From Candidatus Latescibacterota bacterium (GTDB lineage Bacteria; Latescibacterota; UBA2968; UBA8231), in assembly GCA_965221775.1 (NCBI GenBank), contig CBDCSU010000006.1, positions 864,001-928,000 on the forward strand: a DNA stretch of 64,000 nt, read 5' to 3'. Each line of letters begins with the position of its first letter. The stretch's first letter is position 1. The notes under the pieces are model-generated. The model saw nothing but the letters and a program-made list of their open reading frames with translations, was not told where the DNA came from and ran no database searches. Below, one piece after another: positions 21,527 to 46,079 of this stretch. Both the position numbers and the translations under genes were made by a program.

Positions 21527-21663
21527 GGGGTGTCACGCATTGGACACACCGGCGACTGCTAGAGCACACACCGGCATCGCCCCCGGTAGCGGGGAGAAGT
21601 CCGCAAGTCCTTGCCCTCCAGCCTGGTGGAGGGCAAAGGGCGGCGCTGGCACGGCGTTTGTAT
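21527..21663 (+). promoter_or_regulatory. Sigma54-type promoter 1 with IHF-like and activator-like sites
   Basis: TGGCACGGCGTTTGTAT at 21647-21663, CCGCAAGTCCTTGCC at 21601, GGGGTGTCAC at 21527. The same arrangement recurs at 24835-24969. Confidence 0.65.
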
Positions 21664-21785
21664 CGGTGCGGCGGCAGAGCCCTCCTCCCACCCCATCCAC
21701 GGGATAGGTCGCCGCCATCGCAGATCCCGGATCAGCTCCCGCCAGGCGATCCCCAGCCTTTGACCGTCCGCGGGCCCCGCGCCCG

Positions 21786-23153
21786 GTGGGGTCCTCCGGT
21801 CCCGCCGTCAGGCGCCGGCCCGAGAGGGCGGCAGACAGCCTTGCGCACGCAGGCCGCGCCCGTCCCCGCCCTTGGGCGCGAGGCATCATCGTTCTCAACG
21901 GCAACTTCGTCCCCGCATCGGCGGCCGGGCCCTTCAAGTACGGAGCGGTGGGCTATGCCCTAAGGGCGGCGGAGGCCCTGCGTCGCCCGGGCCTGCTGGC
22001 GGGGTTCCTCCTCTACCGGCGCGACGAGGGATTGGACCGGCCGCGGCTAGACCCGGTGCCGCTGCTCGGGTATCCGGCCCTCCAGCTCGGCTTTCACTTC
22101 GGCATGGACCGCCAGGTCCTGGGCGCCGCCCTGGAGGCCGCCCGCGCGCGCCTCGGCGGCGGACGGCTCTACTACCAGACCAACGTGCTGCTGCCCTTTC
22201 ACCCGCCCGGGCGGCCCCTCGTCGTCACCCACCACGCGCCCTTCGTCGACCACGTGGTCGAGGTCATGGGGCCGCGCCTGGCGGAGGAAGCCTTCGGCGC
22301 CGGGCGCGAGAAGCTGGAGCACCTGAGGGTCAACCAGCGCCTCGGACTGAAGCACCTGGCCCGCAGCCGCGGTGCCGCCGTCGAGATCTCGTCGATCCAG
22401 GCGGAGTACCTGCGCGCCCACGGCGTGGAGGGCCGGTTCATCCACAGGATCCACCCTCCCCTGGAGTCCGACGCGGTGAACGGCCTCTCCGGGGAGGGGG
22501 CGCGCCTGCGCAGCTTCATCGCCCGGGGCGGCCCCCGTCTGGTCCTGTGCACGGCCTGCTCGCGGCTGGACGCCTTCAAGAACGTCGAGCTCTTCGTGAG
22601 GGCCGCCCTCGGGCTGGCCAGGTCGGGCCTCGACCTGCGCGCGCTGGTCATCGGGGGCCCTCCCGATGATGCGCAGCGGCGGCGGCTGCAGGGGCTGGTG
22701 GACGCCGGCGTGGCGCACCGATTCCGCTTTTCCCCGAGGGTTTCGCGCGACGACCTGGCCCACCTGCTCGACGATCTGGCCGGCCGCGGCCTCTTCGTCT
22801 GTCCCTCGCGCTACGAGACTTGCGGCCTCACCCCCCTGGAGGCGGCGGCCCGCGGGGTCTGCACGCTGGTGGCGGACACGCCCGACAGGGTCGAGGCGGC
22901 CACGCTGGTCCCGCCCGGGCACCGGTTCACCCCGACGGCAGAGGGCCTCGCAGACGCCGTGCGCCGGCTCGCGGGCGACGGGCGGCTCCGGGTCGAGGGC
23001 CGAGTCCTCGACGAAGGCGCACGGGCCGGCAGCCTCGACTTCGACGCGCGCTTCATCGCCGCCTGGCAGCGTGCGACGGCGCCGCGGGGGCCCGGGTGCG
23101 CCGCGGCCGGCGACGGGCGGGAACTCTCCCGCGATCCGGCCCATCCGGCCTGA
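21786..23153 (+). CDS. Glycosyltransferase family 4 (divergent), in candidate RiPP cluster
   Basis: CSRLDAFKNV and PSRYETCGLTPLEAAARG (EX7E). Start uncertain. Confidence 0.75.
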   Translation: MGSSGPAVRRRPERAADSLAHAGRARPRPWARGIIVLNGNFVPASAAGPFKYGAVGYALRAAEALRRPGLLAGFLLYRRDEGLDRPRLDPVPLLGYPALQLGFHFGMDRQVLGAALEAARARLGGGRLYYQTNVLLPFHPPGRPLVVTHHAPFVDHVVEVMGPRLAEEAFGAGREKLEHLRVNQRLGLKHLARSRGAAVEISSIQAEYLRAHGVEGRFIHRIHPPLESDAVNGLSGEGARLRSFIARGGPRLVLCTACSRLDAFKNVELFVRAALGLARSGLDLRALVIGGPPDDAQRRRLQGLVDAGVAHRFRFSPRVSRDDLAHLLDDLAGRGLFVCPSRYETCGLTPLEAAARGVCTLVADTPDRVEAATLVPPGHRFTPTAEGLADAVRRLAGDGRLRVEGRVLDEGARAGSLDFDARFIAAWQRATAPRGPGCAAAGDGRELSRDPAHPA

Positions 23154-23161
23154 GGGTTGCC

Positions 23162-23797
23162 ATGCCCAAGGGCCGTCCGGTCCCGCTCGATCTCTCCTGC
23201 CACTTCAACAACGGCGGCATCGCCGCGGACGGGCGGCCGGCGGAGGGCGGTCTCGACGGCCTGGGCACCGCCTTCCGGGCGCAGAGCCTGCCATCCCCGG
23301 GTGGGACGATCCTCAGCCAGGGGACCCCCTTCCTCTTTCCGGGCGCAACCCCCGGCTCGGAGGACAACATCGCCTGCGAGGCCCAGGTGATCCCCCTGCC
23401 GCCAGGCCCCTGGGGTGCCCTCCACGTCCTGGGCATGTGCGATTGGCGGGCCTTCGAGGAACCCCTCCGGTTGCAGGCCTCCGACGGCACCTTGGCGGAG
23501 ACCCGCCTGGGACTGAGCGACGCGCCGCGCTACGGAGGGCTCCAGTACGGCGAAAGAGCGGCCCTCTCGTGTCCGCTCATGACTCCCGACACGTCGGTCC
23601 CTCTCTCTTCTCTCATCGGCTCCTCGCCGCCCGAAGCCGGATGCGAGACGGAGGAGACGCGTATCGAGGCCGGGATCTGGCACCAGGTGATCGACCTGCC
23701 CGGGCCCCGGCCCCTCACGGCCCTCGTGCTGCCCGACAACCCGTCCATGCACCTCTTCGCCCTCACCCTGGCCGCGGCGGACCCGGCCTCCCCGTGA
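23162..23797 (+). CDS. Hypothetical protein (possible beta-sandwich, carbohydrate-binding-like)
   Basis: LDLSCHFNNGGI...DNIACEAQVIPLP...LPDNPSMHLFALTL. Stop overlaps the start of the BtrH-like gene. Confidence 0.65.
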   Translation: MPKGRPVPLDLSCHFNNGGIAADGRPAEGGLDGLGTAFRAQSLPSPGGTILSQGTPFLFPGATPGSEDNIACEAQVIPLPPGPWGALHVLGMCDWRAFEEPLRLQASDGTLAETRLGLSDAPRYGGLQYGERAALSCPLMTPDTSVPLSSLIGSSPPEAGCETEETRIEAGIWHQVIDLPGPRPLTALVLPDNPSMHLFALTLAAADPASP

Positions 23798-24792
23798 GCA
23801 AGCGGATCCCCGGCATTCCCTTCTGCACCAACCGGCACTACAACTGCGTCTACGTGGTGCTCGACAGTCTGCTGCGCTTCCATGGCCACGAGCCCACCGT
23901 GGCATGCTTTTCCAACTGGGACTTCCTCTACCTCCGGGAGGAGGGACGCTTCGCCATCGACGGCCGCGCAATCCCCCTTCCAACGATGCTCGGCGCCTTC
24001 GGGATCGGCCTCTTCCACCGCGCCGACGCCGACGCCGACGCCGCGTGGAAGGCCGTGAAGTCGCGGCTCGACACCGGTACCCCGGTAGCCGTCAACGTCG
24101 ACGTCTTCGCCCTCGCCCGGGCCGGCCTCTATCCCCGCCTGCGTCACGCCGACCACCAGTACATCGCCGCCGGGTACGACAAGCCGGCGGGCACCGTCCA
24201 CCTGATCGATCCGTCGCCCTGGCAGCCCTCCGCGCGGGACATTCCCCTCGGCCTGTTCCTCGCCTGTTGGGACATGAGCGCCTTCTCCGGGGTGCGCGGC
24301 CGCTACAACTGGACCTGGCTGCGGGCGCCGGCGCACCCCCCTTCCCTGGGCCGCGGCCCCCTTCAGGCCCTCCTGCGCCGCAACCTGCGGAGCATGTCGG
24401 CCCCCGGCGGCCAGGCGGGCCTGGTGACGGGCCTGGAGGGGATCCGGCAGCTCGCCGCCGATGCCGGGGCCTGGGCGGGGCGGGAGGACGCCGACCTGCA
24501 GAGCCATCTGCGGCACTGCGCCCGGCTGCTGCTGGAGATCGCCGTGCTCCGCGAGGGGCACGGCCGCTTCCTGGGGCACGTGGGCCGGCTCTTCGACCAG
24601 CCCCGTCTGGCAGCTCTCGGCGCCGAGTTCGGGACGATCTCCCAGGGCTGGTTCGTGGTGAAGAGCCTGTGCCTCAAGGGGGCCCTCAAGGAGCCGCGGA
24701 GTCTCCTGCCCCGCATCCAGTCCCGGCTCGAGGACATCGAGGCCCGCGAAGGCAAGGCCCTGGCGGGACTGGCGGAGGCCGTGGAATGGTAG
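23794..24792 (+). CDS. BtrH N-terminal-domain protein (papain/C39-like fold)
   Basis: N-terminal Cys (YNC), then PVAVNVDVFAL...H..HQYIAAGYD...VHLIDP, giving a Cys-His-Asp arrangement. Confidence 0.75.
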   Translation: MSKRIPGIPFCTNRHYNCVYVVLDSLLRFHGHEPTVACFSNWDFLYLREEGRFAIDGRAIPLPTMLGAFGIGLFHRADADADAAWKAVKSRLDTGTPVAVNVDVFALARAGLYPRLRHADHQYIAAGYDKPAGTVHLIDPSPWQPSARDIPLGLFLACWDMSAFSGVRGRYNWTWLRAPAHPPSLGRGPLQALLRRNLRSMSAPGGQAGLVTGLEGIRQLAADAGAWAGREDADLQSHLRHCARLLLEIAVLREGHGRFLGHVGRLFDQPRLAALGAEFGTISQGWFVVKSLCLKGALKEPRSLLPRIQSRLEDIEAREGKALAGLAEAVEW

Positions 24793-25021: not shown

Positions 25022-26212
25022 ATGAACATCGCCCTGATCGGTCAGGAGATGCCGCCCCTTTCCGGGGGCCTGGACCGCCACGTTCAGGACTGCGCCGCCG
25101 GACTGTCGCGGCGCGGCTGCGGGGTCCGCGTCCTCTCCATCGTCGGAGAGGGGCGGGGGCTGGCCGGCGACGAGATCCTGCTCCGACCCGGCGGCTCCCC
25201 CATCCAGGTGCACCGGACCTCGGTGCCGGGAGCGGACGACCCCGAGCCGAGGCTCACCGCCGGCGCCTGCCGCGGGCTCGCCCCGCACTGGTGCTCGCTG
25301 CTGGCCGACGCCGACGCGGTCTGCAGCTTCGGAGCCTCTACGGCCCTGGCCGGCGCCGAGATCCGCCGGCGGCTCGGACTCCCCTTCATCGCCGTCCTCC
25401 CCGATCTGCCCTCGCCGTCCGACGCCCGCCTCCGGGAGGTCCTGGGCTGCGGCGCCGATCTCTTCGTCGGCCTCTCGCGCTCCCAGTGCCGCCGCGCCGC
25501 AGAGCGCTTCGGCCTGCCCATGACCCCGGTCCCCCACGGCGTCGACACCGAGCTCTACCGGCCCGTGGCGGGGCCGGCCGCCGAGGCCGCCCTCGACCGC
25601 TACACCGTGCTGGGCGGCATTCCGGGCCCGCTTGTCACAAGCCCCGTGCGCATCGACCCGAGGCAGGGCCTCGAGCCGCTCATCGAGGCCTTCGAGCTGG
25701 TCGTCGCCCTGCGCCCCGACGCCACCCTGCTGATCGCGGGCCACGCCGGCTTCCGCCACCACCTTGTGGGCAACGCCTACGCCGACTACCTGTCCGCCCT
25801 GGTGCAGATGAAGGAGCTGGGCGCCAGGGTGCGCTTCGGCGGGGGCGTGTTCAAGGCCCGCCACATGCCCGCTCTCTACTCGCGCTCGCACCTGTGCGTC
25901 GTGGCCGGCGGGGGCGAGGACTTCGGCGCCGCGCCGGCCGAGTCCCTGGCCTGCGGGACACCGGTGGTGGCCCCCCGCGGCGAGGGCATGGCCGAGGTCC
26001 TGGGCCACGGCACCGGGGGCCTCCTGGTCGACGGCCGGGATCCGGTGAAGGTGGCGCGGGCCATCCTCTCCCTCCTCGACGACGACGCCCTGCGGAACCG
26101 ACTCGGCCGCGGCGGCCGCGAGCACGTGTGCCGCGCCTTCCCGCTGCGGGCGCAGGCCGACCGCTACCTCGAGCTGTTCTCCTCCATCACCGCCGCCCGC
26201 GCCGCCGCCTGA
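25022..26212 (+). CDS. Glycosyltransferase family 4, in candidate RiPP cluster
   Basis: MNIALIG..PPLSGGL, PHGVDTELY, EDFGAAPAESLACGTPVV. Confidence 0.85.
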   Translation: MNIALIGQEMPPLSGGLDRHVQDCAAGLSRRGCGVRVLSIVGEGRGLAGDEILLRPGGSPIQVHRTSVPGADDPEPRLTAGACRGLAPHWCSLLADADAVCSFGASTALAGAEIRRRLGLPFIAVLPDLPSPSDARLREVLGCGADLFVGLSRSQCRRAAERFGLPMTPVPHGVDTELYRPVAGPAAEAALDRYTVLGGIPGPLVTSPVRIDPRQGLEPLIEAFELVVALRPDATLLIAGHAGFRHHLVGNAYADYLSALVQMKELGARVRFGGGVFKARHMPALYSRSHLCVVAGGGEDFGAAPAESLACGTPVVAPRGEGMAEVLGHGTGGLLVDGRDPVKVARAILSLLDDDALRNRLGRGGREHVCRAFPLRAQADRYLELFSSITAARAAA

Positions 26213-26226: not shown

Positions 26227-27654
26227 ATGCCCCAAGTGCAGCCGGAGTCCCTGGAATCCATCTGCCTCCCCGACGACGGCACGGCCCTGCTCACGCCGCC
26301 GCCGGGGAGCCTGCTCGAATCGGCCGCGGGGGAATCCCCCTCGATCCGGCAGCGGCTCGAGGACGCCCACCGCGAGCTCGCCGGCGGCGATGCCCGGGAG
26401 GCGGCGGGTTCCTTCCAGGCGGTGCAGGCCCGGTGGCCGCATCCCTTGCCTGCCATGGCCGAAGGCGTCGCCCTCGCCCTGGCGTCGGACTGGCGCGGCG
26501 CCCTGACCCAGCTCTCCGGGAGCGCCGGCCAGCTCGAGGAGCGGGGCCTGCCCGACGCGGCCCTCGGCTGCCGGCTGAACCTGGGGTACGTCCACTACGT
26601 CCTGGGCGACCCCGCCGGCGCCGAGTCCACCCTCGACCAGGCGGTGCAGGCCGCGAGCCTCGCCGGCAAGACCCGGCTGCTGGCCACCGGACTCCACGAG
26701 AAGGCCGCCCTCCGGCTGCGCCACGGCCGTTACGGGGACGCCCGCGAGGAGTGCGAGAGAGCGATGGCGGAATGCCCCGGGGAGGGGGCGGCGCTGGCCC
26801 AGGTCATGTGCACGCAGGCGATTGCCTCCCAGGCCCTCGGAGAACTCCCCCGGGCCGAGGAGGAGTTCAGGGCCTCCCTGTCGCTGGCCTCGGGGGTCTC
26901 GCCCTTCGCGGAGCTGCGGGCCTCCGTCAACCTGGCCGTGCTCTGCCAGCTCACGGCGCGCGGCACGGAAGCCCTGGAGCTGCTCGCCGCGGCCACGGCC
27001 GTCGCCGAGCGCCAGCGGGACGCACGGTTCCTCGCCAAGATGCGGTTCCTGCGGGCCCTGATGGACTTCGGGGAGACCGGGGAGGAGGCCCTGCCGGCCG
27101 CTCTCGCCGAGGTCGAGCAGATGCGCGGCCTCCACTACCGCAAGGGAGAGCTGGACGCCATCCCCATGCTGGTCCCGTGTCTGCTGGAGTGCGGCAAGAA
27201 CCTCGAAGCGGAGACCCTGGCCGCCGCGGCGATGACCACCGCGCAGGAGTGCGGGTACCTGGCCGGGCTCCTCGAGGCGATGTCGTGCGCCGCCCTGGTC
27301 CATCTCGCCGGCGCCGACGCCGAGCGCGCGAAGGAGGCGGCCTGCGGCGTCCTGGAGAAGAGCGAGGCGGCGCAGCTGCCGGTCATCGGCATCAAGGCCC
27401 GCCGGATCCTGTCGGACGTGTCGCTGCAGGAGGGCGAGCCGGAGAGAGCCCTGGAGCACCTTCGGCGGGCGGAGGGAGCCGCCGCGGAGATCGGGGCCCA
27501 GGTCCTGCAGTGCCACCTCATGGAGGCGGCAGCCGCCCTCCTGGAGATCTGCGGCAGGATCGAGGAGGCCGAGGCGGAGAGAGCGGCTGCCCAGGCGCGG
27601 GGCCTCTCCATCGGACTGGGGAGCGCTGCCGCAGTCGGGAGCAGCATCGAATGA
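26227..27654 (+). CDS. TPR/MalT-TPR-like helical repeat protein
   Basis: Ala/Leu-rich helical repeats (LNLGYVHYVLGD, VNLAVLC). Lies immediately upstream of the precursor array. Confidence 0.7.
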   Translation: MPQVQPESLESICLPDDGTALLTPPPGSLLESAAGESPSIRQRLEDAHRELAGGDAREAAGSFQAVQARWPHPLPAMAEGVALALASDWRGALTQLSGSAGQLEERGLPDAALGCRLNLGYVHYVLGDPAGAESTLDQAVQAASLAGKTRLLATGLHEKAALRLRHGRYGDAREECERAMAECPGEGAALAQVMCTQAIASQALGELPRAEEEFRASLSLASGVSPFAELRASVNLAVLCQLTARGTEALELLAAATAVAERQRDARFLAKMRFLRALMDFGETGEEALPAALAEVEQMRGLHYRKGELDAIPMLVPCLLECGKNLEAETLAAAAMTTAQECGYLAGLLEAMSCAALVHLAGADAERAKEAACGVLEKSEAAQLPVIGIKARRILSDVSLQEGEPERALEHLRRAEGAAAEIGAQVLQCHLMEAAAALLEICGRIEEAEAERAAAQARGLSIGLGSAAAVGSSIE

Positions 27655-27703: not shown

Positions 27704-27904
27704 ATGAACAGACTCATCAAGCCGCAGAAGCAGTCCTACCAGGGCGAAGACGCCCAGGTGCTCGCCTACTCCGACATCTGCGAGATGGCAGCCGTCCTCT
27801 GCACGGGCGTGACGATCGGCTTGCTGGGCTTCGGCGTTGCGCCGGCCGTGGTCGTGGCGGGCGTGTCGTGCGCCATCCTGGTCCTGATCTGCGGACTCAT
27901 CTGA
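27704..27904 (+). CDS. Putative RiPP/bacteriocin precursor peptide 1 (66 aa)
   Basis: RBS AAGGAG. Leader MNRLIKPQKQSYQGEDAQVLAY, core with C-x6-C...C-x6-C. Confidence 0.85.
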   Translation: MNRLIKPQKQSYQGEDAQVLAYSDICEMAAVLCTGVTIGLLGFGVAPAVVVAGVSCAILVLICGLI

Positions 27905-27968: not shown

Positions 27969-28196
27969 ATGAACAGACTCATCAAACCGCAGAAGCAGTC
28001 CTACGAGGGCGAAGACGCCCAGGTCCTGGCCTACTCCCGTCTCAGCGAGATGGCATGGGCCGCCAGCGTCTGCGCGGGCGCCATAGGCGCTGCGGGCTTG
28101 TTGGGCCTCGCCGTGCCGCCTCTCCTGGCGGCGGTGGGCGTGTCGTGTTTCATCCACTACGTCGTCTACTCGGCGGGCAGCAGGGGTTACCTCTGA
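27969..28196 (+). CDS. Putative RiPP/bacteriocin precursor peptide 2 (75 aa)
   Basis: RBS AAGGAG. Leader MNRLIKPQKQSYEGEDAQVLAY, hydrophobic core with 2 Cys. Confidence 0.85.
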   Translation: MNRLIKPQKQSYEGEDAQVLAYSRLSEMAWAASVCAGAIGAAGLLGLAVPPLLAAVGVSCFIHYVVYSAGSRGYL

Positions 28197-28331: not shown

Positions 28332-28547
28332 ATGAACAAGCTCGTCAAGCCGCAGAAGCAGTCCTACACCGGCGAGGACTCCCAGGTCCTTGCCTATTCC
28401 GATACCTGCGAGATGACATGGGCCACCGCCATCTGCACGGCCCGGCCCTGGTTTGGCCTCGGCCGGAGTCCTTTCATCGCCGCGACGGGAGTGACGTGCC
28501 TCCTTTTCTCCACAGTCTGTTCGGCGGTGCGCAACGCTTACATCTGA
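28332..28547 (+). CDS. Putative RiPP/bacteriocin precursor peptide 3 (71 aa)
   Basis: RBS AAGGAG. Leader MNKLVKPQKQSYTGEDSQVLAY, core with C-x8-C...C-x6-C. Confidence 0.85.
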   Translation: MNKLVKPQKQSYTGEDSQVLAYSDTCEMTWATAICTARPWFGLGRSPFIAATGVTCLLFSTVCSAVRNAYI

Positions 28548-28624: not shown

Positions 28625-28846
28625 ATGGACAAACTCATCAAACCCCAGAAGCAGTGCTACACCGGCGAGGACGCCCAGGTCCTGGCCTATGCCCGTGACT
28701 GCGAGATTGCCTGGGGCGTCAGGACCTGCGTTGGCTTCACAACCATTGGATACGTGGTGACCGGGTCGCCTTGGGGTGCCGTGGCCGGTGCGCTCTTGGC
28801 CCTCGCTTACATCGTCTCCATGGCGTCGTACAACGGTCACATCTGA
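28625..28846 (+). CDS. Putative RiPP/bacteriocin precursor peptide 4 (73 aa)
   Basis: RBS AAGGAG. Leader MDKLIKPQKQCYTGEDAQVLAY, core with C-x8-C followed by a hydrophobic hairpin. Confidence 0.85.
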   Translation: MDKLIKPQKQCYTGEDAQVLAYARDCEIAWGVRTCVGFTTIGYVVTGSPWGAVAGALLALAYIVSMASYNGHI

Positions 28847-28945
28847 CCTTCCCCCCGGGGATTGCACCGCGTCTTGCTTGAGCGTCGACAAGACGTGTAG
28901 TACTCACTGACCGACCAAACCCTCAGCGCCCCGTAGATGCCCCCC

Positions 28946-33638: not shown

Positions 33639-33741
33639 AGGCCCGGCGGCAGCGGGCGGACGGACGTTCCCGGAGAGTCCGGGAACTTCCAGCGGGGAGT
33701 CTTGCGTCCGGATGGACCTGTCAAACCAGAGAGGTGATGTC

Positions 33742-36439: not shown

Positions 36440-37384
36440 ATGACCGGAGCCATGGGAGCGATGAGGAGGGCGATGCTCGTGGCCCTGGCGGCGGGCGTGG
36501 CCGTGCCGGGATGCCGGACCGGCCAGGGGGGGGCCGCCGTGCCGAGGCACCCGGTCGTCCCCGCCGTGCGCGGCGAGCTGATCGACCGGCTCGCCGCCGA
36601 TGGCCGAGTCGAGTTCGCCGAGGTCGTCGAGGTCGGATCCACCCTGTCGGGCACCGTGACCTGGATCGCCGCGGCGGACGGGATCGTAGCCGAAGGTGAC
36701 CCCATCGCCTCCGTGCGGGGACGGCAGGGGCGAGGCGCCGACGTCCCGGCGCCCCGGGGCGGTGCCGTGGTGAGACGGCACGTGGACGCGGGAGAGAGCG
36801 TCCTCGCCGGGTTCGAGGGTGGACCCGCGCTGGTGTCGATCGCCTCCACGGGGCGGTTCGTCGCCCGCTGCGACGTGGCCGAGGTGGACATCGGTTCCTG
36901 GAGCGAGGACCGGCCGGCGATGGTCGTGGTGCAGGCCTTCCCCGGGGACCGGCTCGAAGGACGGGTGCGGCGGATCTCGAGGATGGGCCGCCGGAGCCCG
37001 GGCAGCCACATGGCCACCTTCGAAGCGGTGGTCGACCTCCAGGAAGCCCCGGACCGGCTGCGCCACGGCATGTCCTGTGTCGTGGAGGTTCCGACGTACG
37101 TGCAGAAGGACGTGGTCTCCCTGCCGTTGCAGGCGGTCGCCATGGAAGGACTCGACGCCGCCTCCTGGAGGGCGCGCGGTCCGGTGGCCGCCCGCGCCTG
37201 GTTGTGCGCGGCGGAGGACCCGGCCGGCGCAGGCTCGGCGCCGGGTTGCCCGCGGGACCGCTTGCGGCCGGTGGAGCTGCGAGTCTCGCGAGGCACGGAG
37301 AGCCGCGTCGTCGTCCGGTCCGGCCTCCGGCCAGGGGATCGGGTCGCCGCCGATGCAAGCGCCCTCGAGGAGGCGGCGGAGTGA
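36440..37384 (+). CDS. Efflux periplasmic adaptor subunit (MacA/HlyD family)
   Basis: Lipoyl-like halves, LRHGMSCVVEV, SGLRPGDRV. Confidence 0.8.
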   Translation: MTGAMGAMRRAMLVALAAGVAVPGCRTGQGGAAVPRHPVVPAVRGELIDRLAADGRVEFAEVVEVGSTLSGTVTWIAAADGIVAEGDPIASVRGRQGRGADVPAPRGGAVVRRHVDAGESVLAGFEGGPALVSIASTGRFVARCDVAEVDIGSWSEDRPAMVVVQAFPGDRLEGRVRRISRMGRRSPGSHMATFEAVVDLQEAPDRLRHGMSCVVEVPTYVQKDVVSLPLQAVAMEGLDAASWRARGPVAARAWLCAAEDPAGAGSAPGCPRDRLRPVELRVSRGTESRVVVRSGLRPGDRVAADASALEEAAE

Positions 37385-38610: not shown

Positions 38611-39534
38611 GTGCGGAGTCTGCTCGCGGCGCCCACGGCCCTGGAGGCGGTGCGGCGGTTCCGCCTGAGGGCGGTGGTCGCCGTCGTCTCGGTAGCCACC
38701 GGCGTCGCCGCCATGGTGGCGATCCAGTCCGTCGGCGCCGCGGTGCAGCGGCTGGTCATGGGCGAGCTCGGCCGGCTCGGGCTCCAGAGGCTGGTCCTGG
38801 TGCACCCCCGGCCGGCGCCGCCACGGCAAGGACCTGCGCCGTTGCTGACCCTGCAGCAAGTGGTGGAGCTCGAGCGCACCGTGCCCGGTCTCGACCACGT
38901 GGTGCCCATGTCGCGGATGGATCTCCGGATCCAGTCCGGGGGCCGCGGGGCGTACGCCCGGGCCACGGGGACGGTGCCCGACTACCGGCGGCTCCTGGGA
39001 GACACGATGGCCTGGGGCCGGTTTCTCGACGCGACCGATGGCCTGACCCGCCGCAGGGTCTGCGTCCTGGGCGCCGATCTCGCCGAGCGGCTGCTGCGAG
39101 GCGGCCCATCCACGGGCCGGAGGGTCCGCCTCGACGGCGTCACCTACACGGTCGTGGGCGTGCTCGAGAGAAGACGGTTGATGGAGGCTGCCCGGGGCGA
39201 CGAGCGGCTCATCCTCCCGGTCCGCACGCTGGAGAGCTTCCACGGCGGGCCCCCCGGGGTCCACCGCATCCACGCATCCCTGGCGGCCGGTGCCGACCCT
39301 GCCGGAGCCGTGGCCGCCGTTCGCCGCGTCCTCGCCCGCGGCGGGCAGGACCTGGAGCGCTACGAGGTCCTGAGCGGCCGGGAGTTCCTCGAGGACATCA
39401 ACCAGGCCCTGATCGCGGCGCGCCTGGTGACGACGGCCATCGCCGGCATGGCCCTGGTCGTCGGAGCCGTGGGAGTCCTCAACACGATGCTCATCTCGGT
39501 GAGGCAGCGGATCTGGGAGATCGGCCTTCGCAAG
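38611..39534 (+). pseudogene. MacB-like ABC permease, 5' part (interrupted by IS1595 element)
   Basis: Ends at ...QRIWEIGLRK at the insertion site. Confidence 0.85.
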
Positions 39535-39547
39535 GGGGATTACATAC

Positions 39548-39576
39548 TTGACTGCGCAAGACCCGTTTCGTATCTT
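39548..39576 (+). promoter_or_regulatory. Sigma70-type promoter in IS left end
   Basis: TTGACT-N17-TATCTT pointing inward. Confidence 0.6.
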
Positions 39577-39582
39577 GGAGGT

Positions 39583-39895
39583 TGACGGGCGGCTCCTGGC
39601 GGGACCCGGAGCCTCCGTAAGTATACGGGAAATCAACGAGTTATCCAACTCGGAGCAGGTAGGGATCAGATGGGCACTACTGGCCGCAACCGAGAGGCGT
39701 TGACAGGGTTCGGGCGGGTTCGATCTTCGAGGAAGGGCGGGCAGCTACGGCAGGTCCTTCTATCTAACGGAGGCAATCCTTCGCCTGGCCTTACGGGGAG
39801 TCCATACGGCAAGAAGCCAGCGCCGGGGAAGTAAGAGTAAGACCGACGCTATGGACAAACCCGCTGCCCGCCCTCACTCCTACTTAACCCGATAG
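39583..39895 (+). ncRNA. Candidate structured RNA or long 5' leader upstream of the transposase
   Basis: No convincing ORF. Perfect 12-bp long-range pairing AGGGCGGGCAGC (39734) with GCTGCCCGCCCT (39863), plus local hairpins near 39586-39618 and 39637-39652. Confidence 0.4.
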
Positions 39896-39905
39896 AGGAT
39901 TGGAA

Positions 39906-40913
39906 ATGGCCGTCAAAGAGGAATCCAAGGTCAAGGCCGTCAAGGGCCGGACCCGAGAAGAGAAGCCGACCAAGAAGAAGCAGAAGGCTCCTGGTCGCCA
40001 CTATCGAGCTGGGATCACGATGGTGGAGTTGTTCAGGATGTTCCCGGACGATGCCGCTGCGGAAAAGTGGTTTGAGCGTCAGCGGTGGGAACAGACCGGC
40101 CTCTACTGTCCTTTGTGCGGCTCCTGCGACAAGGTGAAGGAAGCTCCCAAGCGCAAGCCGATGCCGTACTGGTGCGGAGACTGCCGGAAACGATTCTCCG
40201 TCCGTACCGGGACGCTGATGGCCCGGTCCCATATCTCGTTGCAGAAATGGGCCATCGGGATCTTCCTGCACCTGACCAGCCTGAAAGGCGTCTCTTCGAT
40301 GAAGCTGCATCGGGACCTGGGGATCACTCAGAAGTCCGCATGGTTCATGCTGCATCGGATCAGAGACGCTTACGGGTGCGAGCCGTGCATGATGGAGGGT
40401 CCGGTCGAGGCGGACGAGACTTTCATCGGCGGGCTCGAAAAGAACAAGCACTCACACAAGAAGTTGCGGGCCGGTCGGGGGACCGTAGGCAAGGCCGTGG
40501 TCGTCGGCGTCAAGGACCGTGAGACAAAGCAGGTTCGCGCCTCGGTCGTGCCGGACACGTCTCGCAAGACGCTGCACGGCTTCCTTCGCAAGCATATCAA
40601 AGCCGATGCCAAGACGTACACGGACGAGAATGTGAGCTACAAGGGCCTGCTGAACCACGAGGCGGTCCAGCACTCCATCGGCAAGTGGGTGGAGGGAGAA
40701 GCGCACACCAACGGCATGGAGTCGTTTTGGGCCACGCTAAAACGTGGATACCATGGGGTTTACCACCGTATGAGCGTGCAGCACCTTCACCGCTACATCC
40801 AGGAGTATGCCGGCAAGCACAACATCCGGGACAAAGACACGCTCGATCAGATGCGGGATGTTGTGGCCGGGATGATCGGCAAGCGCCTGATGTACAAGGA
40901 CCTGACTAAGTAG
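39906..40913 (+). CDS. IS1595-family DDE transposase
   Basis: Zn ribbon CPLC...CGDC, then VEADETFIGG, YTDE, HTNGMESFWATLKRG. Confidence 0.95.
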   Translation: MAVKEESKVKAVKGRTREEKPTKKKQKAPGRHYRAGITMVELFRMFPDDAAAEKWFERQRWEQTGLYCPLCGSCDKVKEAPKRKPMPYWCGDCRKRFSVRTGTLMARSHISLQKWAIGIFLHLTSLKGVSSMKLHRDLGITQKSAWFMLHRIRDAYGCEPCMMEGPVEADETFIGGLEKNKHSHKKLRAGRGTVGKAVVVGVKDRETKQVRASVVPDTSRKTLHGFLRKHIKADAKTYTDENVSYKGLLNHEAVQHSIGKWVEGEAHTNGMESFWATLKRGYHGVYHRMSVQHLHRYIQEYAGKHNIRDKDTLDQMRDVVAGMIGKRLMYKDLTK

Positions 40914-41229
40914 GAGGCTCAGATGATTTCAACTCTGTCTCAATCCGTTCGAGGGCCGATAGGATCTGCTGCTCTGTGGTTGGCTCAAAGGTGCGGAGTA
41001 TATCCCGAGCCATTTGAACCAGTACAGAACGCTCGATCAGAAAGGTCTTGGCTTCCGGCTTGTATGCCGGAATGGTCTGACCCTTACTTGTATCCTCCTG
41101 AAACGTCCAAAGGACAAAAACCACGTCCTTGGGGTCGGGTGTTTCTTTCGATAACTGCTCCGCCAGCTCTGCCTTTGACACCCGAAGAAAGGGGTAGGGT
41201 AGAGCAGGCCGTTGCTCGGATTGTGGCAA
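40906..41229 (-). CDS. Hypothetical passenger protein
   Basis: AGGAGG RBS 5 nt before a TTG start. Converges on the transposase. Confidence 0.5.
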   Translation of the reverse strand: MPQSEQRPALPYPFLRVSKAELAEQLSKETPDPKDVVFVLWTFQEDTSKGQTIPAYKPEAKTFLIERSVLVQMARDILRTFEPTTEQQILSALERIETELKSSEPPT

Positions 41230-41467
41230 AAGGTCCTCCTAACCATGAGGCTAAAAGATGAACAGCAAACCGAAACGCCAGCCGAAGCGCCGTACGTCTC
41301 GCAAGTCAAGCTCGCGTAGGTCTTCCTCTGACACTCGTCAAGCTATGCGATCCGCTCGTGATAGGGACCCTGGCAAGCAGGCCGATGCCCGCCGTATTGT
41401 CCATACCCTGTTGCATGGACGCGGCAGCGGCGAGGGAACGGAGCCTAAGAAGAACGAAGACAGCAAG

Positions 41468-41980
41468 TCAATCGTCCTTGGGCTTGTCGCCGACGCGGAA
41501 AGCGAAGAATCCTAACGCGGGGACGTGCTCCAAAGATAGCCACGCATCCCGATCCCCGAGTTTCCTCTTAACCTGCTGCAAATCCCCTGTCTTCTGAATC
41601 TCCAATACAGCTTCTTTGAACCAGTCGTTCCTTCCTTCCCACTTCGGCCACAGAAGATTCAGCAGGCCGAAGCCGTGCATTACGTTAAGCGTGACTACCT
41701 GCTCGTTGTCGTTGGGTAGCCACAAGAGTAGTAGGATATTACTCAGATCGTCCGCCGGGCCGATCAACTCAACACTCGTAATGCCCACCGTACTGCTTCC
41801 CAAGACCCGAGGCGTACCGTCTTCCAGGGGAGCAATCTTGAACTCGAATTTCATATCCTCGTACTTGGCTTGCAGGTAATCCCTTGAGATCCCAAGTCCC
41901 TTAGTCTTCGGATCTTCGGCCAGTAGGAACGAAGGCAAGGCCAGCATTACGAGAATAAGCCAGTAGAATCTGATCTGCAT
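41468..41980 (-). CDS. Secreted hypothetical passenger protein
   Basis: Signal peptide MQIRFYWLILVMLALPSFLLA. Confidence 0.6.
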   Translation of the reverse strand: MQIRFYWLILVMLALPSFLLAEDPKTKGLGISRDYLQAKYEDMKFEFKIAPLEDGTPRVLGSSTVGITSVELIGPADDLSNILLLLWLPNDNEQVVTLNVMHGFGLLNLLWPKWEGRNDWFKEAVLEIQKTGDLQQVKRKLGDRDAWLSLEHVPALGFFAFRVGDKPKDD

Positions 41981-42275
41981 TTCCCGCCCCTTTGCAGAAG
42001 GTTGAAGGGAACGGCCCGGCGTCCCGAATGGACACCGGGCCGTTGCAAAGCAGATCTCTGAGCGAGAAATGTCCCCGCCTATTCACCATCTTCCTCCAAG
42101 GAGCGACCTCGAAGGATACTGCACCGGCTCTTGTATTCAGCAGGCGACCCGGCACAGAAGGCCGGAAAGCTCGGCTGAGACCTGCTTTGCACGCTCGCAG
42201 AATAGATAGATTCTGAGGGAAAGTCAAGAAGAACAACGACTTGTGCGGAGGGTACTTGTTCGTAGATTCAAGGGT

Positions 42276-42884
42276 ATGGACCTAAGAGAACTGATCGAGG
42301 ATCGCCGGGCCGCCCTCGGCATCCGGCGCGGGGAGCTGGCCCGGAGGATGGGCTACCGGGACCCTTCCCGTGGCTGCCGGCGAATTGACAGGCTGCTGGA
42401 CGGCGACGTGGAGCTTGCGGAGGCGCTACGGGCGCGGCTGGCGGCCGGCCTGTCCGTGGAGCCGGGGAAGGTGGATGAGGCGATCCGGGGCGAGCTGGCG
42501 GCTCAGGAAGCCGCGTACCGGGCTGCGTTCAAACCGCACGCGATCGCCCGCACGCGGCGCGAGCGTCCGGAGCCGGTGTTCATTTACGCGATGTGCGGCG
42601 GCCCGGAGACTCAAGTGATCGGCTTGGAGGAAGAGCTGGGGGCGGGAACCTTCGCCCGGCAGGCTCTTCTCAAGCTCCCTGATGCGGTCCCCGGACTCGG
42701 GGCCGTCACCAGCTACGTGGTCAACTACTCGCCGGACCGGGCGGTTGAGTATGACCTGGCCGGCGATCCCGTCCGGGAGTTTGATCGAGCCATCCCGATG
42801 CCGTGGGCCGGCATGGTCGTTGGCGGGAAGCGGATCGGTAGCAAGACGTGGTCAAGGCTGATGAAGATGGAGAAGACTCACTGA
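42276..42884 (+). CDS. XRE-like HTH domain protein
   Basis: LIEDRRAALGIRRGELARRMGY HTH pattern. Confidence 0.65.
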   Translation: MDLRELIEDRRAALGIRRGELARRMGYRDPSRGCRRIDRLLDGDVELAEALRARLAAGLSVEPGKVDEAIRGELAAQEAAYRAAFKPHAIARTRRERPEPVFIYAMCGGPETQVIGLEEELGAGTFARQALLKLPDAVPGLGAVTSYVVNYSPDRAVEYDLAGDPVREFDRAIPMPWAGMVVGGKRIGSKTWSRLMKMEKTH

Positions 42885-42885
42885 C

Positions 42886-42988
42886 AGGGATACTTACAGG
42901 TGCTGGATTGCGAGGGATACTTACAGGTGCTGGATTGCGAGGGATACTTACAGGTGCTGGATTGCGAGGGATACTTACAGGTGCTGGA
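42886..42988. repeat. 27-bp tandem repeat, about 3.8 copies
   Basis: AGGGATACTTACAGGTGCTGGATTGCG x3 plus a 22-nt partial copy. Confidence 0.95.
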
Positions 42989-43116
42989 GGACCCAACACA
43001 GACGCGGGCTTTCGTAACTTACGAATAGCCAACTTACCCATGTCCCATACGAAATTGAGAATAAGGGACACGATCAATTCCACGCCCATGGTTTTACTGC
43101 TCCGTGAGAATTTCTA

Positions 43117-43608
43117 TCACTGAGGGAAGAAAGATCGTGTTTGGGAATGTCCCTTAACTCGATCTTCGATAATCTGTTTGAAGCGTAATTCCAACGTTCC
43201 TTTAGAGGAACACAGGGCATACCCGCTATTCTCTCCGAGACTGCGGTACTCTCGAAAATTCATGTTGACAGTAAGTCTGCTAGATATCTCGCTATCTTCC
43301 CGCAAAACCATGTTGAAACGGAGATAGCGGTGTTGAGGGACTGCTATACCTGGAGTACCGCAGTCAATAAACTCTCCCATCCAGGGCGCGGGCCGTCCCA
43401 TTCCAGTCCATTCTGTAACTATCAGACCGGAATCCTTCTCGATAGTGCTGATTGGAAAATCATGTTCTGCCAAGAAGTCTACAATGGCGGCCCATACCTT
43501 GTCGTACTGTCCCATAGGCCAACTCTTGTCGAAGGTATATTGTTGAGGGGCAACAGCACAAGACGTTAGGCTTATAGCGGCAAGTAATGTAACGAGCGGT
43601 TGGTTCAT
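43117..43608 (-). CDS. Lipoprotein (BamC-like fold candidate)
   Basis: Lipobox LTSC and YDKVWAAIVDFL...STIEKDSGLIVTEW. Confidence 0.65.
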   Translation of the reverse strand: MNQPLVTLLAAISLTSCAVAPQQYTFDKSWPMGQYDKVWAAIVDFLAEHDFPISTIEKDSGLIVTEWTGMGRPAPWMGEFIDCGTPGIAVPQHRYLRFNMVLREDSEISSRLTVNMNFREYRSLGENSGYALCSSKGTLELRFKQIIEDRVKGHSQTRSFFPQ

Positions 43609-43835
43609 CTGTCCTTGCCCTCGTAGCTCTCGTTCCTCCGTCGTTCTGAATCCTGCTGGATGTCCGTCACAGCGTTGTAAATGAAGAATAGCCCAAAGGT
43701 CACGACTATCTGATACGGTGTGAATTCCCAATACAAGACCAGCACAAGCAGAATGAGCCCTCCGATCAAAGCCTTGATCCCTCGGATAGGGCTTGACTCA
43801 GGAATCTTCATGCCGTCCTTCCTTTTGTAGGGCAT
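43605..43835 (-). CDS. Small 2-TM membrane protein
   Basis: Two hydrophobic segments. Stop overlaps the lipoprotein start. Confidence 0.5.
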   Translation of the reverse strand: MPYKRKDGMKIPESSPIRGIKALIGGLILLVLVLYWEFTPYQIVVTFGLFFIYNAVTDIQQDSERRRNESYEGKDR

Positions 43836-43850
43836 CTTGAAGCGGTATCA

Positions 43851-43935
43851 GAGAGGCTAGAGAATCGGCGATCTCAACCGACTTACAATCGGCTGCCTGT
43901 GACAGGGCTTGCGGGTTCGAATCCCGTCGCTGCCG
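43851..43935 (+). pseudogene. Degenerate tRNA-like copy (anticodon UAC, broken acceptor stem)
   Basis: 41-nt core identical to the 44603 copy. Intact T arm GCGGG-TTCGAAT-CCCGT, unpaired acceptor stem, no CCA. Confidence 0.65.
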
Positions 43936-44038
43936 ATTGCATCCACTTGCACAAGAGTTGGTAGTTATCGATGTGATCCGGCCCGCCTTTTGATCGGGGG
44001 ACTTTATGGTAGGAGCAGGCGGCCTGACGGAGGGAGGG

Positions 44039-44239
44039 TCAGGCTTCCTCCCTGTATTCCCAGATCGTGCCATCGGGCTTCTCTGCCACCACTCGACCCG
44101 TTCCGTAGTTCAGTAGCTTTCTGGCCAAATGCAGGGCGTGGGCCTCCCAGTCGTCGTCGCCATCCATCACAACGGTGATGTGGATATCCTCCGGCTCCTT
44201 GGTGTTCTCGTAGGCGCGGAAGATGTAGTTACCTTTCAT
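44039..44239 (-). CDS. Small hypothetical passenger protein
   Basis: 66 aa, GGAGG RBS upstream. Confidence 0.45.
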   Translation of the reverse strand: MKGNYIFRAYENTKEPEDIHITVVMDGDDDWEAHALHLARKLLNYGTGRVVAEKPDGTIWEYREEA

Positions 44240-44365
44240 CACCGCTGATCCCCCTCCAAGAGTGAAGAAGTATTCCCCGCAGGTGGCCCGACACGCGAGC
44301 CCCCTGGGAAGTAGGCAGGGTGGAATATAAGAGCCGCAAGACGCCGGCCCAAGCACAATTTCCGG

Positions 44366-44539
44366 TTAGGGAGGATTCTCGGCGGCGTACTTCTCGCGCC
44401 GCTCCCGAACCATCTCCTTGTGCGTCTGCGGAGGCGTGTTGAGTAGATTTCGAGCGATCCGTTCCGCTTCCTGATGGATCTCTTCCGGGATCTTCCCTTC
44501 CGGGTCGATCTCGCGAGTACTTGACTGTTCTTCGTGCAT
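44366..44539 (-). CDS. Small passenger protein
   Basis: 57 aa containing IARNLLNTPPQTH, AAGGA upstream. Confidence 0.45.
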   Translation of the reverse strand: MHEEQSSTREIDPEGKIPEEIHQEAERIARNLLNTPPQTHKEMVRERREKYAAENPP

Positions 44540-44562
44540 GGCGTTCTTCCTTTCGATAGAGC

Positions 44563-44596
44563 GATGCCCTCCGACCTGGCAGGGTCGGAGGGCATC
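44563..44596. other. Strong hairpin immediately upstream of the tRNA-like gene
   Basis: GATGCCCTCCGACC / GGTCGGAGGGCATC, a perfect 14-bp inverted repeat. Confidence 0.75.
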
Positions 44597-44602
44597 TGTC
44601 AC

Positions 44603-44689
44603 GGCGGGGCTGAGAATCGGCGATCTCAACCGACTTACAATCGGCTGCCTGTAGCGGGCTTACGGGTTCGAATCCCGTCCCCGCCGCCA
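44603..44689 (+). tRNA. Non-canonical tRNA: anticodon UAC (Val) with long variable arm, G73 and encoded CCA
   Basis: Acceptor GGCGGGG/CCCCGCC, D stem GAGA/TCTC, anticodon arm CCGA-CTTACAA-TCGG, variable stem GCCTG/CGGGC, T arm ACGGG-TTCGAAT-CCCGT, 3' end G-CCA. Confidence 0.75.
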
Positions 44690-44825
44690 CCCAACTATGC
44701 GTTACGCCTACATGCGATACGAATGTTACGATACAAAGGTTCTTCGTCAATAGGTGAACATCAAAGCACTATTCGGACTCCAACGCCGGGGTCTGCGAAG
44801 TCAACGGTATAATTCCCTTCGCAAG

Positions 44826-45119
44826 GCCCTCGGCGCCCGGCCGATGGCCATCGTGGGTCAGTTCCTCACCGAGGCGGTGGTCCTGAGCTGCTGCGGCGGC
44901 GGCCTCGGCCTGGCCCTGGGATGGGGACTCGCCCGGGGCGGCGAGGCGATGCTCTCCGGATGGCTCGGAACCTCCATGGCCGGCTCCACCGACTGGGGGT
45001 CCGCGGGGCTCGCCCTGGCCGTCTCCCTCTGCGTGGGCATCGGCTCCGGCGTCGTGCCCGCGGTGCAGGCCGCCGAACTCCCTCCCGCGGAGGCCATGAG
45101 GCATGCTGGTCGAGCTTGA
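44826..45119 (+). pseudogene. MacB-like ABC permease, 3' part
   Basis: ALGARPMAIVGQFLTEAVVLS...PAVQAAELPPAEAMR continues the 38611 gene. Confidence 0.85.
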
Positions 45120-45816
45120 GTCCGCCTGCAAGACCTACAGGAGGGGGACGCAGGAGGTGCGCGCCCTCCGGGAAGTGGACGCCGCCTTCGGCGAGGGCGA
45201 GTTCGTCGCCCTCATGGGTCCCTCCGGCTCCGGGAAGACGACGCTGCTCAACATCATCGGCTGTCTCGACAACCTGACGGCGGGCCGGTACCTCCTGCAG
45301 GGCGAGGATGTGACCGGCCTGAACCCCATCCGCCTCGCCGAGGTCCGAAGCCGCAGGATCGGCTTCGTCTTCCAGAGCTTCCACCTGCTGCCGAGGGCGA
45401 CGGCGGCGGAGAACGTCGAGCTGCCCCGGATCTACGCGGGAGCGAACCGCCGCCAGCGGCGGGAGTGCGCCCGCGCGGCCCTCGATCGGGTCGGGCTGGC
45501 CGACCGCCGCGACTTCCGGCCGGAGGAGCTGTCCGGCGGCCAGCGGCAGCGCGTGGCCATCGCCCGGGCCCTGGTCAACGAGCCCTCGCTGATCCTGGCG
45601 GATGAGCCCACCGGCAGCCTGGACCCGCAGGCCGCGGGAGAGGTCATGGAGCTGTTCGCGAGACTGAACGACGAGGGCATCGCCATCGTCCTGGTAACGC
45701 ACCAGGAGGAGGTGGCGCGGCACGCGAGGCGGAAGATCCGCCTGGCCAATGGCCGCGTGCTCCCCACACCCGCGGGACCGGAGTCTCCCGCACAGACCCA
45801 AGGGACCCGCCCATGA
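45103..45816 (+). CDS. ABC ATP-binding protein (MacB/LolD-type)
   Basis: [33 protein letters not shown]. Confidence 0.93.
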
Positions 45817-46079
45817 CGAAGGCCGAGATCACCCGCGGGGTCCGGGAGGCCGTGGTGAAGGCCCTCGACCTGCCCATCCAACCCGACCAGCTCCCCGAGA
45901 GCGAGCCCCTCTTCGGCGCCGACGGCGAGGTCGACTCGATCCTGTCGATCAAGCTGGTCGTCGAACTGGAGGAGACTTTCGGGATCGAAGTCGACGACGA
46001 CGATCTGACGGAGGAGCTCTTCGGGACGGTGGCGGCCCTGGCGGAGTACGTGGAGACGAGACTGGCGGCCCTCCGTTGA
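45813..46079 (+). CDS. Acyl carrier protein
   Basis: 88 aa, acidic, with [21 protein letters not shown] (phosphopantetheinyl Ser). Coupled to the ATPase by ATGA. Confidence 0.88.

Follow-up and report, generated by a model that had tools for sequence, protein, structure and literature searches.

How are ribosomally made peptides matured in a gene cluster that holds an acyl carrier protein (ACP), a protease fused to a second domain and candidate transacylases, with no radical SAM maturase? This question is raised by a locus in a 64,000-nucleotide stretch of contig CBDCSU010000006.1 from a Candidatus Latescibacterota bacterium (G000:C6:864001-928000; below, the whole stretch is called the window and all coordinates are positions in it, unless a locus is named). 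We propose from the genes alone that the locus makes bacteriocin-like peptides whose leader is removed by an S8 protease domain and which are then acylated from the ACP, a reading that we regard as evenly balanced between right and wrong. Genes in the window were called by GC3 frame analysis and translation, followed by Pfam and NCBIfam scans. The cluster (21786-46079) is close-packed, with all genes on the + strand in the order B, C, D, E, F, G-H-I-J, K, L, M, N, O, P, Q, R, S, V, W and with neighbouring genes between B and S separated by -10 to 229 bp. A preliminary description had listed most of these genes as an undescribed peptide system, and all of the listed genes were found to be present, co-oriented and tightly packed.

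Four small genes, G (27704..27904; 66 aa), H (27969..28196; 75 aa), I (28332..28547; 71 aa) and J (28625..28846; 73 aa), encode the precursor peptides, and an identical strong GGAG ribosome-binding site is present at each of them. The four peptides have 21 invariant columns in common, mostly within a 22-residue leader (consensus M-N-R-L-I-K-P-Q-K-Q-S-Y-x-G-E-D-A-Q-V-L-A-Y), and the leader is followed by a hydrophobic core of 44-53 residues with up to four cysteines. These cores resemble class II-type hydrophobic peptides and have no conserved follower or C-terminal recognition sequence. In the host genome, only four strong precursor copies were detected (E 1.4e-11 or lower), all of them in the cluster; the next matches, elsewhere, had E values of 0.14 and 1.24. 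A profile search of 5.8 billion proteins yielded 38 related clusters of 66-75 aa, in none of which a Pfam domain was found and for which the source names were only 'hypothetical protein'.

Central to the proposed maturation is P (34512..36437, + strand; 641 aa), an S8 protease fused to a DUF1611/TIGR04066-like P-loop domain of the DgcN fold. Pfam matched it to Peptidase_S8 (79.6 bits) and to DUF1611 (54 bits). The residues of the S8 triad (D20, H60 and S204) and the P-loop residues 430-439 were invariant or nearly so in 18 homologues, and a signal peptide and a propeptide are absent from the sequence. The model of the C-terminal half (370 residues; pLDDT 87.1) has the whole two-domain DUF1611 fold together with the P-loop, and Foldseek matched it to 2g0t (TM0796), 7xrj (the N-acetyltransferase DgcN, E 5e-13) and 2obn (Ava_3511), with E values from 3e-14 to 3e-12. 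As a single sequence, the same half matched only 2g0t (E 0.075), and it matched no NCBIfam family besides TIGR04066.

Of 41 related genomes, 29 had strong homologues of P (best E ≤ 1e-60), with as many as six matches in a single genome. Species genomes were also scanned by pattern; 222 relatives were confirmed, and the set kept for comparison has 78 loci with 79 fusion genes. These loci are mostly from metagenome-assembled genomes (MAGs) labelled Gemmatimonadota or Latescibacterota; a few are from KSB1, Cytophagia, Melioribacteraceae, Rosettibacter primus and a MAG labelled Gammaproteobacteria. All homologues that were examined (18/18 aligned; 79 copies) had the protease and the DgcN-fold domain in a single protein.

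The ACP of the window is W (45813..46079, + strand; 88 aa; PP-binding, 41.4 bits). For 60 of the 79 fusion genes, an ACP homologue was located no more than 400 bp away, and 64 have one within 3 kb. The remaining 15 comprise four window-type orthologues, in which MacAB-type genes lie between P and the ACP (4.1 kb), two with an ACP 4.4-8.6 kb off, five at a contig edge and four without an ACP. The attachment serine was retained in all 71 ACP homologues (71/71). The conserved core of the system is the S8-DUF1611 fusion together with the ACP.

This core stands beside leader-bearing peptides. Paralogous clusters of other genera have the order TPR (tetratricopeptide repeat) gene, one precursor, K-like gene, L, M, N, O, P, ACP, Q-R-S, and their precursors combine a related leader with a Gly/Ala-rich core that has one cysteine near its start and one as its last residue. 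Precursors outside the window were located by reading the gap between the TPR and permease genes; a search for self-similar small open reading frames was too noisy. A profile of the hydrophobic cores matched the window type and four paralogous loci only, and an iterated leader-only profile (...KPQR...VLAY) was then run on the 78 fusion-containing loci. It matched 27 frames in 20 of the loci, all 27 on the strand of the fusion gene and none on the opposite strand. In 41 whole genomes, we obtained 34 leader matches (E ≤ 0.01), of which 29 were on the same strand as a fusion gene and no more than about 10 kb from it. Three of the other five are on a short contig and cannot be judged, and two, the weakest, lie away from a fusion gene. 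The test of leader co-occurrence put forward in the preliminary description thus had a positive outcome, and the result that it had named as refuting was not obtained. Without a part in maturation, so tight a conservation of fusion and ACP beside leader-bearing peptides would be difficult to account for.

In an alignment of the 27 divergent leaders, only Lys6 and Tyr22 were invariant. The cores behind this leader type vary and are hydrophobic, Cys-rich and about 50 residues long, or hydrophilic with 110 residues or more. A single family of proteases thus seems to handle cargo of widely differing kinds. The hydrophilic cores, which are acidic, Thr/Ser-rich and 110-140 residues long, were seen at loci L048, L050, L053, L060, L064 and L108, and the Cys-rich ones at loci L069-L076.

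A predicted complex of P with a precursor scored 0.41, versus 0.00 for the best control; the runs agreed in at least 67% of contacts and the partner had a pLDDT of at least 38. In the calibration of the tool, its mark was reached by 58 of 80 solved complexes and by 2 of 110 mismatched pairs, and scores of 0.60 or under accounted for 7 of those 80 complexes and for both mismatches. The modelled complex lends weak support to an interaction of P with the precursors.

Candidates for a transfer step are encoded by two overlapping genes, C (23162..23797, + strand; 211 aa) and D (23794..24792, + strand; 332 aa). No Pfam or NCBIfam family was found for C, and an Atlas search with it returned unnamed clusters only. 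The model of C (pLDDT 74.6) had chains of the AziU2/U3 complex as its top Foldseek matches (E about 4e-13, TM 0.75-0.82), and a profile of C matched AziU2/Azi28 in the PDB (E about 4e-18); C is an AziU2-like beta-sandwich protein by these matches. D has a papain-like BtrH_N domain (48.6 bits, cut-off 29.7) and a helical C-terminal domain (DUF4872, 36 bits, cut-off 28), as in the BtrH/CtaG class of transacylases. The preliminary description had proposed searches with BtrH_N and DUF1611, and D and P matched these profiles. A profile of D gave significant PDB matches to AziU3/Azi29 only (E 1.7e-6), and D as a single sequence had no match in the PDB. Residues C11, H118, H121 and D139 of D were invariant in 15 homologues; compared by sequence position only, they lie near Cys11/His128/Asp144 of CtaG as given in the excerpt of PMC12865890. 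According to the same excerpt, CtaG, BtrH and AsbE are papain-like ligases in which a Cys-His-Asp triad moves carrier-bound acyl groups to amines, and AziU2/U3 is the nearest solved fold to these ligases (PMC12865890, 2026).

C and D stand side by side, as do the two subunits AziU2 and AziU3, with an overlap of 4 bp. A sulfotransferase for an AziU2/AziU3-type substrate was not found among the 20 cluster proteins scanned (Pfam/NCBIfam). The order P-ACP-C-D recurs in relatives, and C and D occur together in 11 loci. A second, distantly related BtrH-like family takes the same position in 25 further loci; BtrH_N matched below threshold in 2 of 4 members tested, and the two families are related according to hhalign (probability 85%, E 6e-6). 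In total, 40 of the 78 loci contain a BtrH-like gene of one or the other type, and every hydrophobic-precursor cluster type has one.

In the mechanism that we propose, the cytoplasmic S8 domain of P should cut the leader after the conserved Ala-Tyr. An acyl (or aminoacyl) group, bound as a thioester, would probably be carried by the DgcN-fold domain, W and the C-D pair. This group would probably pass to an amine of the peptide, most simply to the N-terminus newly exposed by the cut. The glycosyltransferase family 4 (GT4) enzymes B and E might glycosylate the peptide or the group held on the carrier. By this mechanism, the fusion, the carrier protein and the papain-like transacylases would be a thiotemplated tailoring machine for ribosomal peptides and would define a new class of modified peptides, a suggestion that we put forward tentatively and consider less likely to be right than wrong.

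Several points weigh against acylation from the ACP. A gene for loading the carrier (adenylating enzyme, ketosynthase or acyl-ACP synthetase) was not found among the cluster proteins scanned. The match of D to AziU3 is modest, and the N-terminal cysteine region lies outside it. AziU2/U3 makes an aziridine via sulfate elimination, with no acyl transfer (excerpt of PMC12865890). Because these solved homologues form an aziridine in this way, the C-D pair could do chemistry other than acyl transfer. The same-genus genome G007 has K to W at about 90% DNA identity (L016/L036, G007:C1, about 3.45 Mb) without B-J, and no leader match was found in a search of the whole G007 genome. This locus may be an orphan export/immunity/protease module standing alone, or it may be decaying. 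According to the prediction tool itself, passes as weak as that of P and precursor are false in the majority of cases unless a strong prior backs them. Finally, cysteines occur together at the two ends of the core: both the first and the last cysteine were present in 24 of 25 sequences with the first cysteine and in 0 of 13 without it (table 13/0/1/24; the sequences are related and not phylogenetically independent). As a hint only, this co-presence suggests a link between the two core ends by disulfides. Disulfides need no dedicated enzyme, and we therefore count the cysteines against the acylation reading.

The cysteines bear on the alternative that fares best. Here, the products would be unmodified or only disulfide-bridged, leader-cleaved hydrophobic bacteriocins, and the ACP, the DUF1611 domain, C-D and the GT4 enzymes would serve regulation, chaperoning or a separate small molecule or lipid. 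The class II-like cores and the paired cysteines are what such peptides would have; a thioredoxin-fold gene is present in the paralogous cluster L020, GT4 genes are not enriched by the fusion, and gene E is deleted internally in the related genome G002. This alternative accounts poorly for the fusion of protease and DgcN-fold domain in every homologue, or for the ACP within 400 bp of most fusion genes beside leader-bearing peptides, and we consider it unlikely. The thioredoxin-fold gene of L020 (6593-7174) encodes an AhpC/TSA-redoxin and lies right by the fusion gene, as does a rhodanese gene at L049 (9507-10004). These neighbours suggest thiol or sulfur chemistry on peptide cysteines at those loci.

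S8 domains are macrocyclases in cyanobactins, and P has a weak match to PatA/PatG (26.8 bits). Instead of a small acyl group for capping, the carrier might hold the peptide or a fragment of it as a thioester, formed via the P-loop domain or the protease acyl-enzyme, for ligation or cyclization by the papain-like enzyme. The cluster proteins include no acyl-making or acyl-loading gene that the scans could find, the paralogous cores have cysteines near the start and as the last residue, and CtaG-class enzymes join carrier-bound peptides according to the excerpt of PMC12865890. This route is improbable: the cores lack a conserved follower or C-terminal recognition sequence, and the cut site at the N-terminal leader means that the protease acyl-enzyme would hold the leader and not the core.

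Sugars were the modification favoured by the preliminary description, in which two glycosyltransferases took the place of the radical SAM enzyme. Gene B (21786..23153, + strand; start uncertain, 21786 or later) encodes a GT4-type enzyme (Glycos_transf_1, 50.3 bits, E 2.7e-13), and gene E (25022..26212, + strand) encodes a second one (Glycos_transf_1, 93.2 bits; Glyco_transf_4, 36.6 bits). B ends 8 bp ahead of C and is kept in the related genomes G002 and G006. If the two GT4 enzymes were the defining maturases of glycosylated bacteriocins, it would fit that two of the 17 GT4 genes of the host lie within 4.4 kb inside the operon, B so close to C, and that a few unrelated loci, e.g. L051 and L061, likewise have GT4 genes by the fusion and ACP. 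Only 7 of 78 loci have GT4-like genes beside the fusion, however, versus about 4.9 expected by chance (17 GT4 genes in 5.36 Mb), they were not found in the paralogous hydrophobic-precursor clusters (L019-L022), and about 620 bp are missing inside gene E in G002 while all four precursors are retained. A third GT4 gene (8597-9763, - strand) lies about 12 kb upstream of the cluster, and in a neighbourhood so rich in GT4 genes arguments from GT4 proximity are weakened. To our knowledge, the known glycocin peptide S-/O-glycosyltransferases are GT2 enzymes; the enzymes here are GT4, and a dedicated peptide glycosyltransferase conserved with the precursors was not seen. The GT4 enzymes are outside the conserved core, although B and E, given their position in the operon, may have a local role in the window. 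Glycosylation of the peptides is weakly supported, and we doubt strongly that glycosyltransferases define this system or replace a radical SAM maturase in it. Of the wording 'glycosylated and/or acylated' in the preliminary description, acylation is the better supported half.

The same description was right that the cluster has no radical SAM maturase. A radical SAM gene (A; 20403-21488, + strand) abuts the cluster upstream, and its product falls in the PA0069 family (478.6 bits, cut-off 360) and is no peptide maturase; the statement therefore stands. In the Pfam/NCBIfam scans of the cluster and its flanks, gene A alone had a Radical_SAM domain and a SPASM-type maturase was not found. For TIGR04068, the best match in the host genome reached 82.6 bits versus a cut-off of 500, on another contig, and none of the five genomes searched had a match above the cut-off. 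The PA0069-family gene is probably unrelated to the peptides. It also adjoins the cluster in G006, and a fragment of it is left in G007.

The remaining cluster genes include the transport functions. F (26227..27654, + strand) is a TPR protein (TPR_2, TPR_12, TPR_MalT), homologues of which (23-28% identity) stand at the head of the paralogous clusters. K (28937..30658, + strand; 573 aa) is a polytopic membrane protein without a Pfam/NCBIfam family and is probably the permease partner of L, with 12 transmembrane segments; its nearest Atlas clusters score 0.97-0.98, and the ABC_tran_2 or 12TM_1 domains of a minority of their members are a lead only. L (30678..31445, + strand) is an ATP-binding cassette (ABC) ATPase of the DrrA/lantibiotic-protection type (ABC_tran, 99.7 bits), with NCBIfam matches to drrA (201.3 bits) and galliderm_ABC (149.5 bits) that are each under the cut-off. 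M (31436..33184, + strand) is a half-size ABC exporter (ABC_membrane, 156.6 bits; ABC_tran, 114.7 bits), and a C39 peptidase domain is not among its Pfam matches. A homologue of M was found in 58 of the 79 fusion-gene neighbourhoods. N (33195..33638, + strand; 147 aa), which the preliminary description did not list, has no Pfam/NCBIfam family and is conserved in the paralogous clusters. O (33712..34512, + strand) is a Yip1/YknW-like membrane protein (Yip1, 36.7 bits; YknW_fam, 32.4 bits, cut-off 110).

Downstream of P follow Q (36440..37384, + strand), a membrane-fusion adaptor of the HlyD/MacA type (HlyD_D23, HlyD_3; RND_mfp, 56.7 bits), and R (37381..38604, + strand), a first MacB-type permease (MacB_PCD, 104.3 bits; FtsX, 51.7 bits). 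The second MacB-type permease, S, is in two parts. Its 5' part (38611..39535, + strand) matches MacB_PCD (117.1 bits) and only the first 33 positions of FtsX, and its 3' part (44816..45119, + strand) holds the rest of the FtsX domain as an in-frame continuation. V (45103..45816, + strand) is a MacB-type ABC ATPase (ABC_tran, 115.9 bits), matched by the NCBIfam models MacB (243.8 bits) and DarD (217.5 bits), each under its cut-off. By family analogy, M and a tripartite Q-R-S-V pump would export the product from the diderm cell, and K-L and O would protect the producer. That the peptides are small membrane or signalling peptides instead, with the transporters handling something else, would fit the retention of the transport/protease half without precursors in G007, but several paralogous cores that diverge behind a common leader, an exporter of their own, a lantibiotic-protection-type ABC-2 ATPase and a set of Yip1/YknW, membrane-fusion protein, FtsX and ATPase are the usual anatomy of a bacteriocin locus and leave this alternative with little chance. 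Near fusion/ACP loci of another genus (L022, 1897-3843; L031, 10408-12237), we noted paralogous genes arranged in tandem. They encode small proteins (about 100-125 aa) that have a CxxC...CxxC zinc-ribbon as well as a membrane segment and are perhaps immunity proteins.

What splits S is an insertion of 5,280 bp (39536..44815) with a GC content of 0.56, versus about 0.72 in this high-GC window, and it is not part of the system. The insertion is bordered by an 11-bp direct repeat (39525-39535 and 44816-44826), and beyond it, at 44816, the S reading frame and the homology to relatives resume. It is missing from all four related loci compared, which align straight across the site, a metagenome contig diverges from the window exactly at 39535, and the insertion is single-copy in the host genome. 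It contains a gene for an IS1595-family transposase (39900-40913), a tRNA-Val gene (44603-44689), a partial second copy of this tRNA gene (about 43860-43935) and a 27-bp tandem repeat (42859-43015). The target duplication of IS1595-type elements is about 8 bp; the 11-bp repeat seems long for one, and a tRNA inside the element is odd. A composite or integrative element is one possible identity of the insertion, and foreign DNA in the genome bin, for which a contamination of 7.75% is estimated, is another. As a mobile element interrupts S, one of the pump genes, part of the function of the locus may be lost in this genome.

The host, an uncultured marine bacterium of Gemmatimonadota type, has a genome of 5.36 Mb in 6 contigs, and the records of its nearest relatives are labelled Gemmatimonadaceae or, inconsistently, Latescibacterota MAGs. 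On the 3' side of W lie MerC/ZrgA-type metal genes, and W is therefore the end of the cluster. The block after the ACP (46070-51290; MerC, ZrgA, ABC ATPase, FtsX, DUF3299) is present in G004 and missing at the G002 and G007 loci, a second insertion/deletion difference beside the cluster.

DNA nearly identical to the precursor region was found in 20 sequencing runs of 8 studies, which are labelled as sponge or marine metagenomes or carry coded organisms. Two contigs from RNA libraries match the precursors: one of 272 nt matches 27970-28241 (precursor H) with no mismatch, and one of 162 nt matches 28271-28432 (start of precursor I) with 2 mismatches. They are a weak hint of transcription of the precursors, as they come from one study in which DNA carry-over is possible. 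The other RNA-library pieces listed for the cluster are 53 nt or less, lie mostly at a short ABC ATPase motif and have ends unlike the window; for other parts of the cluster no pieces are listed, from which nothing follows about transcription.

We found no account of the system in the literature searched, in line with its description as undescribed; the list of CtaG-like enzymes in gene clusters in PMC12865890 may include peptide-associated homologues. Searches for literature on DUF1611 and DgcN gave nothing usable.

Carrier (thioester) chemistry and the maturation of ribosomal peptides are usually held apart. At this locus, a leader protease, a DgcN-fold domain, an ACP and a CtaG/BtrH-class enzyme share one conserved unit beside leader-bearing peptides, and the same unit was seen in at least 78 loci, which belong to uncultured marine, sponge-associated and other bacteria. 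If acylation from the ACP is correct, TIGR04066, the associated ACP, part of DUF1611 and the AziU2-like proteins outside azinomycin would gain a function. The CLI_3235-type systems, which are defined in databases and unstudied, would be explained, and hydrophobic bacteriocin-like peptides would gain a further family, from a phylum of which very few members are in culture. Under the more tentative suggestion of a thiotemplated tailoring machine, enzymes so far known from non-ribosomal pathways only would act on ribosomal peptides, and TIGR04066, TIGR04069 and much of DUF1611 would have their first function, across hundreds of genomes of Gemmatimonadota type and related ones.

Among known systems, the closest is the CLI_3235/CcpM type, to which the preliminary description had related the cluster. 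In the excerpt of PMC10731318, the SacP23 cluster of Paenibacillus polymyxa, which is of this type, has separate genes for a TIGR04066 protein, an ACP-related protein and a subtilisin-like protease together with a radical SAM gene; in the excerpt of PMC9062424, CcpM is named in a network figure only. Both systems have a TIGR04066-like domain, a small carrier protein, a subtilisin-type protease and an ABC exporter beside leader-bearing peptides. P matched TIGR04066 with 106.7 bits (E 1.3e-30) over 309 of 361 profile positions, versus a curated cut-off of 200 bits. The protease and the TIGR04066 protein are separate in SacP23 and fused in P, and thus there is a Rosetta-stone link between them. 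Unlike the CLI_3235/CcpM type, the window system has no radical SAM maturase, its cores are long and hydrophobic, and an AziU2/AziU3-like pair and GT4 genes are added. TIGR04065 did not match the four window precursors (NCBIfam, E ≤ 0.1) or 10 candidate precursors of other fusion loci (E ≤ 1), and TIGR04069 was not among the 16 ACP models that matched W (NCBIfam, E ≤ 0.1). The window leaders end in L-A-Y, and an xxAY ending is given for TIGR04065 leaders in the preliminary description. Judged by these profiles and by the near-constant carrier neighbour, the kinship proposed earlier holds and membership does not: the window system appears to be a relative of the CLI_3235-type system.

D resembles CtaG, BtrH and AsbE in its BtrH_N and helical C-terminal domains and in the carrier protein of its locus, and its invariant Cys/His/Asp residues may correspond to their triad. 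The known members in the excerpt of PMC12865890 are non-ribosomal (closthioamide, butirosin and petrobactin) and have small acceptors, whereas in the window no acceptor other than a ribosomal peptide is evident, and D is accompanied by an AziU2-like protein. With AziU2/AziU3 of azinomycin (Azi28/Azi29; PDB 7wuw and 8gs1), the C-D pair shares the structure and profile matches and the gene arrangement expected of a two-subunit enzyme; AziU2/AziU3 acts on a small molecule, and sequence identity is about 26%.

DgcN (7xrj) and the DUF1611 proteins 2g0t and 2obn have the whole two-domain fold and the P-loop that are kept in P. DgcN uses acetyl-CoA; identity to it is about 16%, and the domain of P differs from it in being fused to a protease and paired with a carrier protein. 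The transport genes are similar to YknWXYZ of Bacillus subtilis and to MacAB-type pumps, with a Yip1/YknW-like protein, a membrane-fusion protein, FtsX-type permeases and a MacB-type ATPase in one operon. YknWXYZ gives protection against the SDP peptide, and MacAB-type pumps export peptides or macrolides. The window set differs in its matches, which are all under the curated cut-offs, and in its two separate permease genes, one of them disrupted.

Lipolanthines and goadvionins are fatty-acylated ribosomal peptides made with polyketide or fatty acid synthase (PKS/FAS) genes and GNAT-type transferases. Unlike them, the window has no chain-building enzyme, and its candidate transferases have papain-like and DgcN-like folds. 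What the window system would have in common with them is the step that we propose, the joining of a carrier-bound acyl group to the N-terminus of the peptide once the leader is gone.

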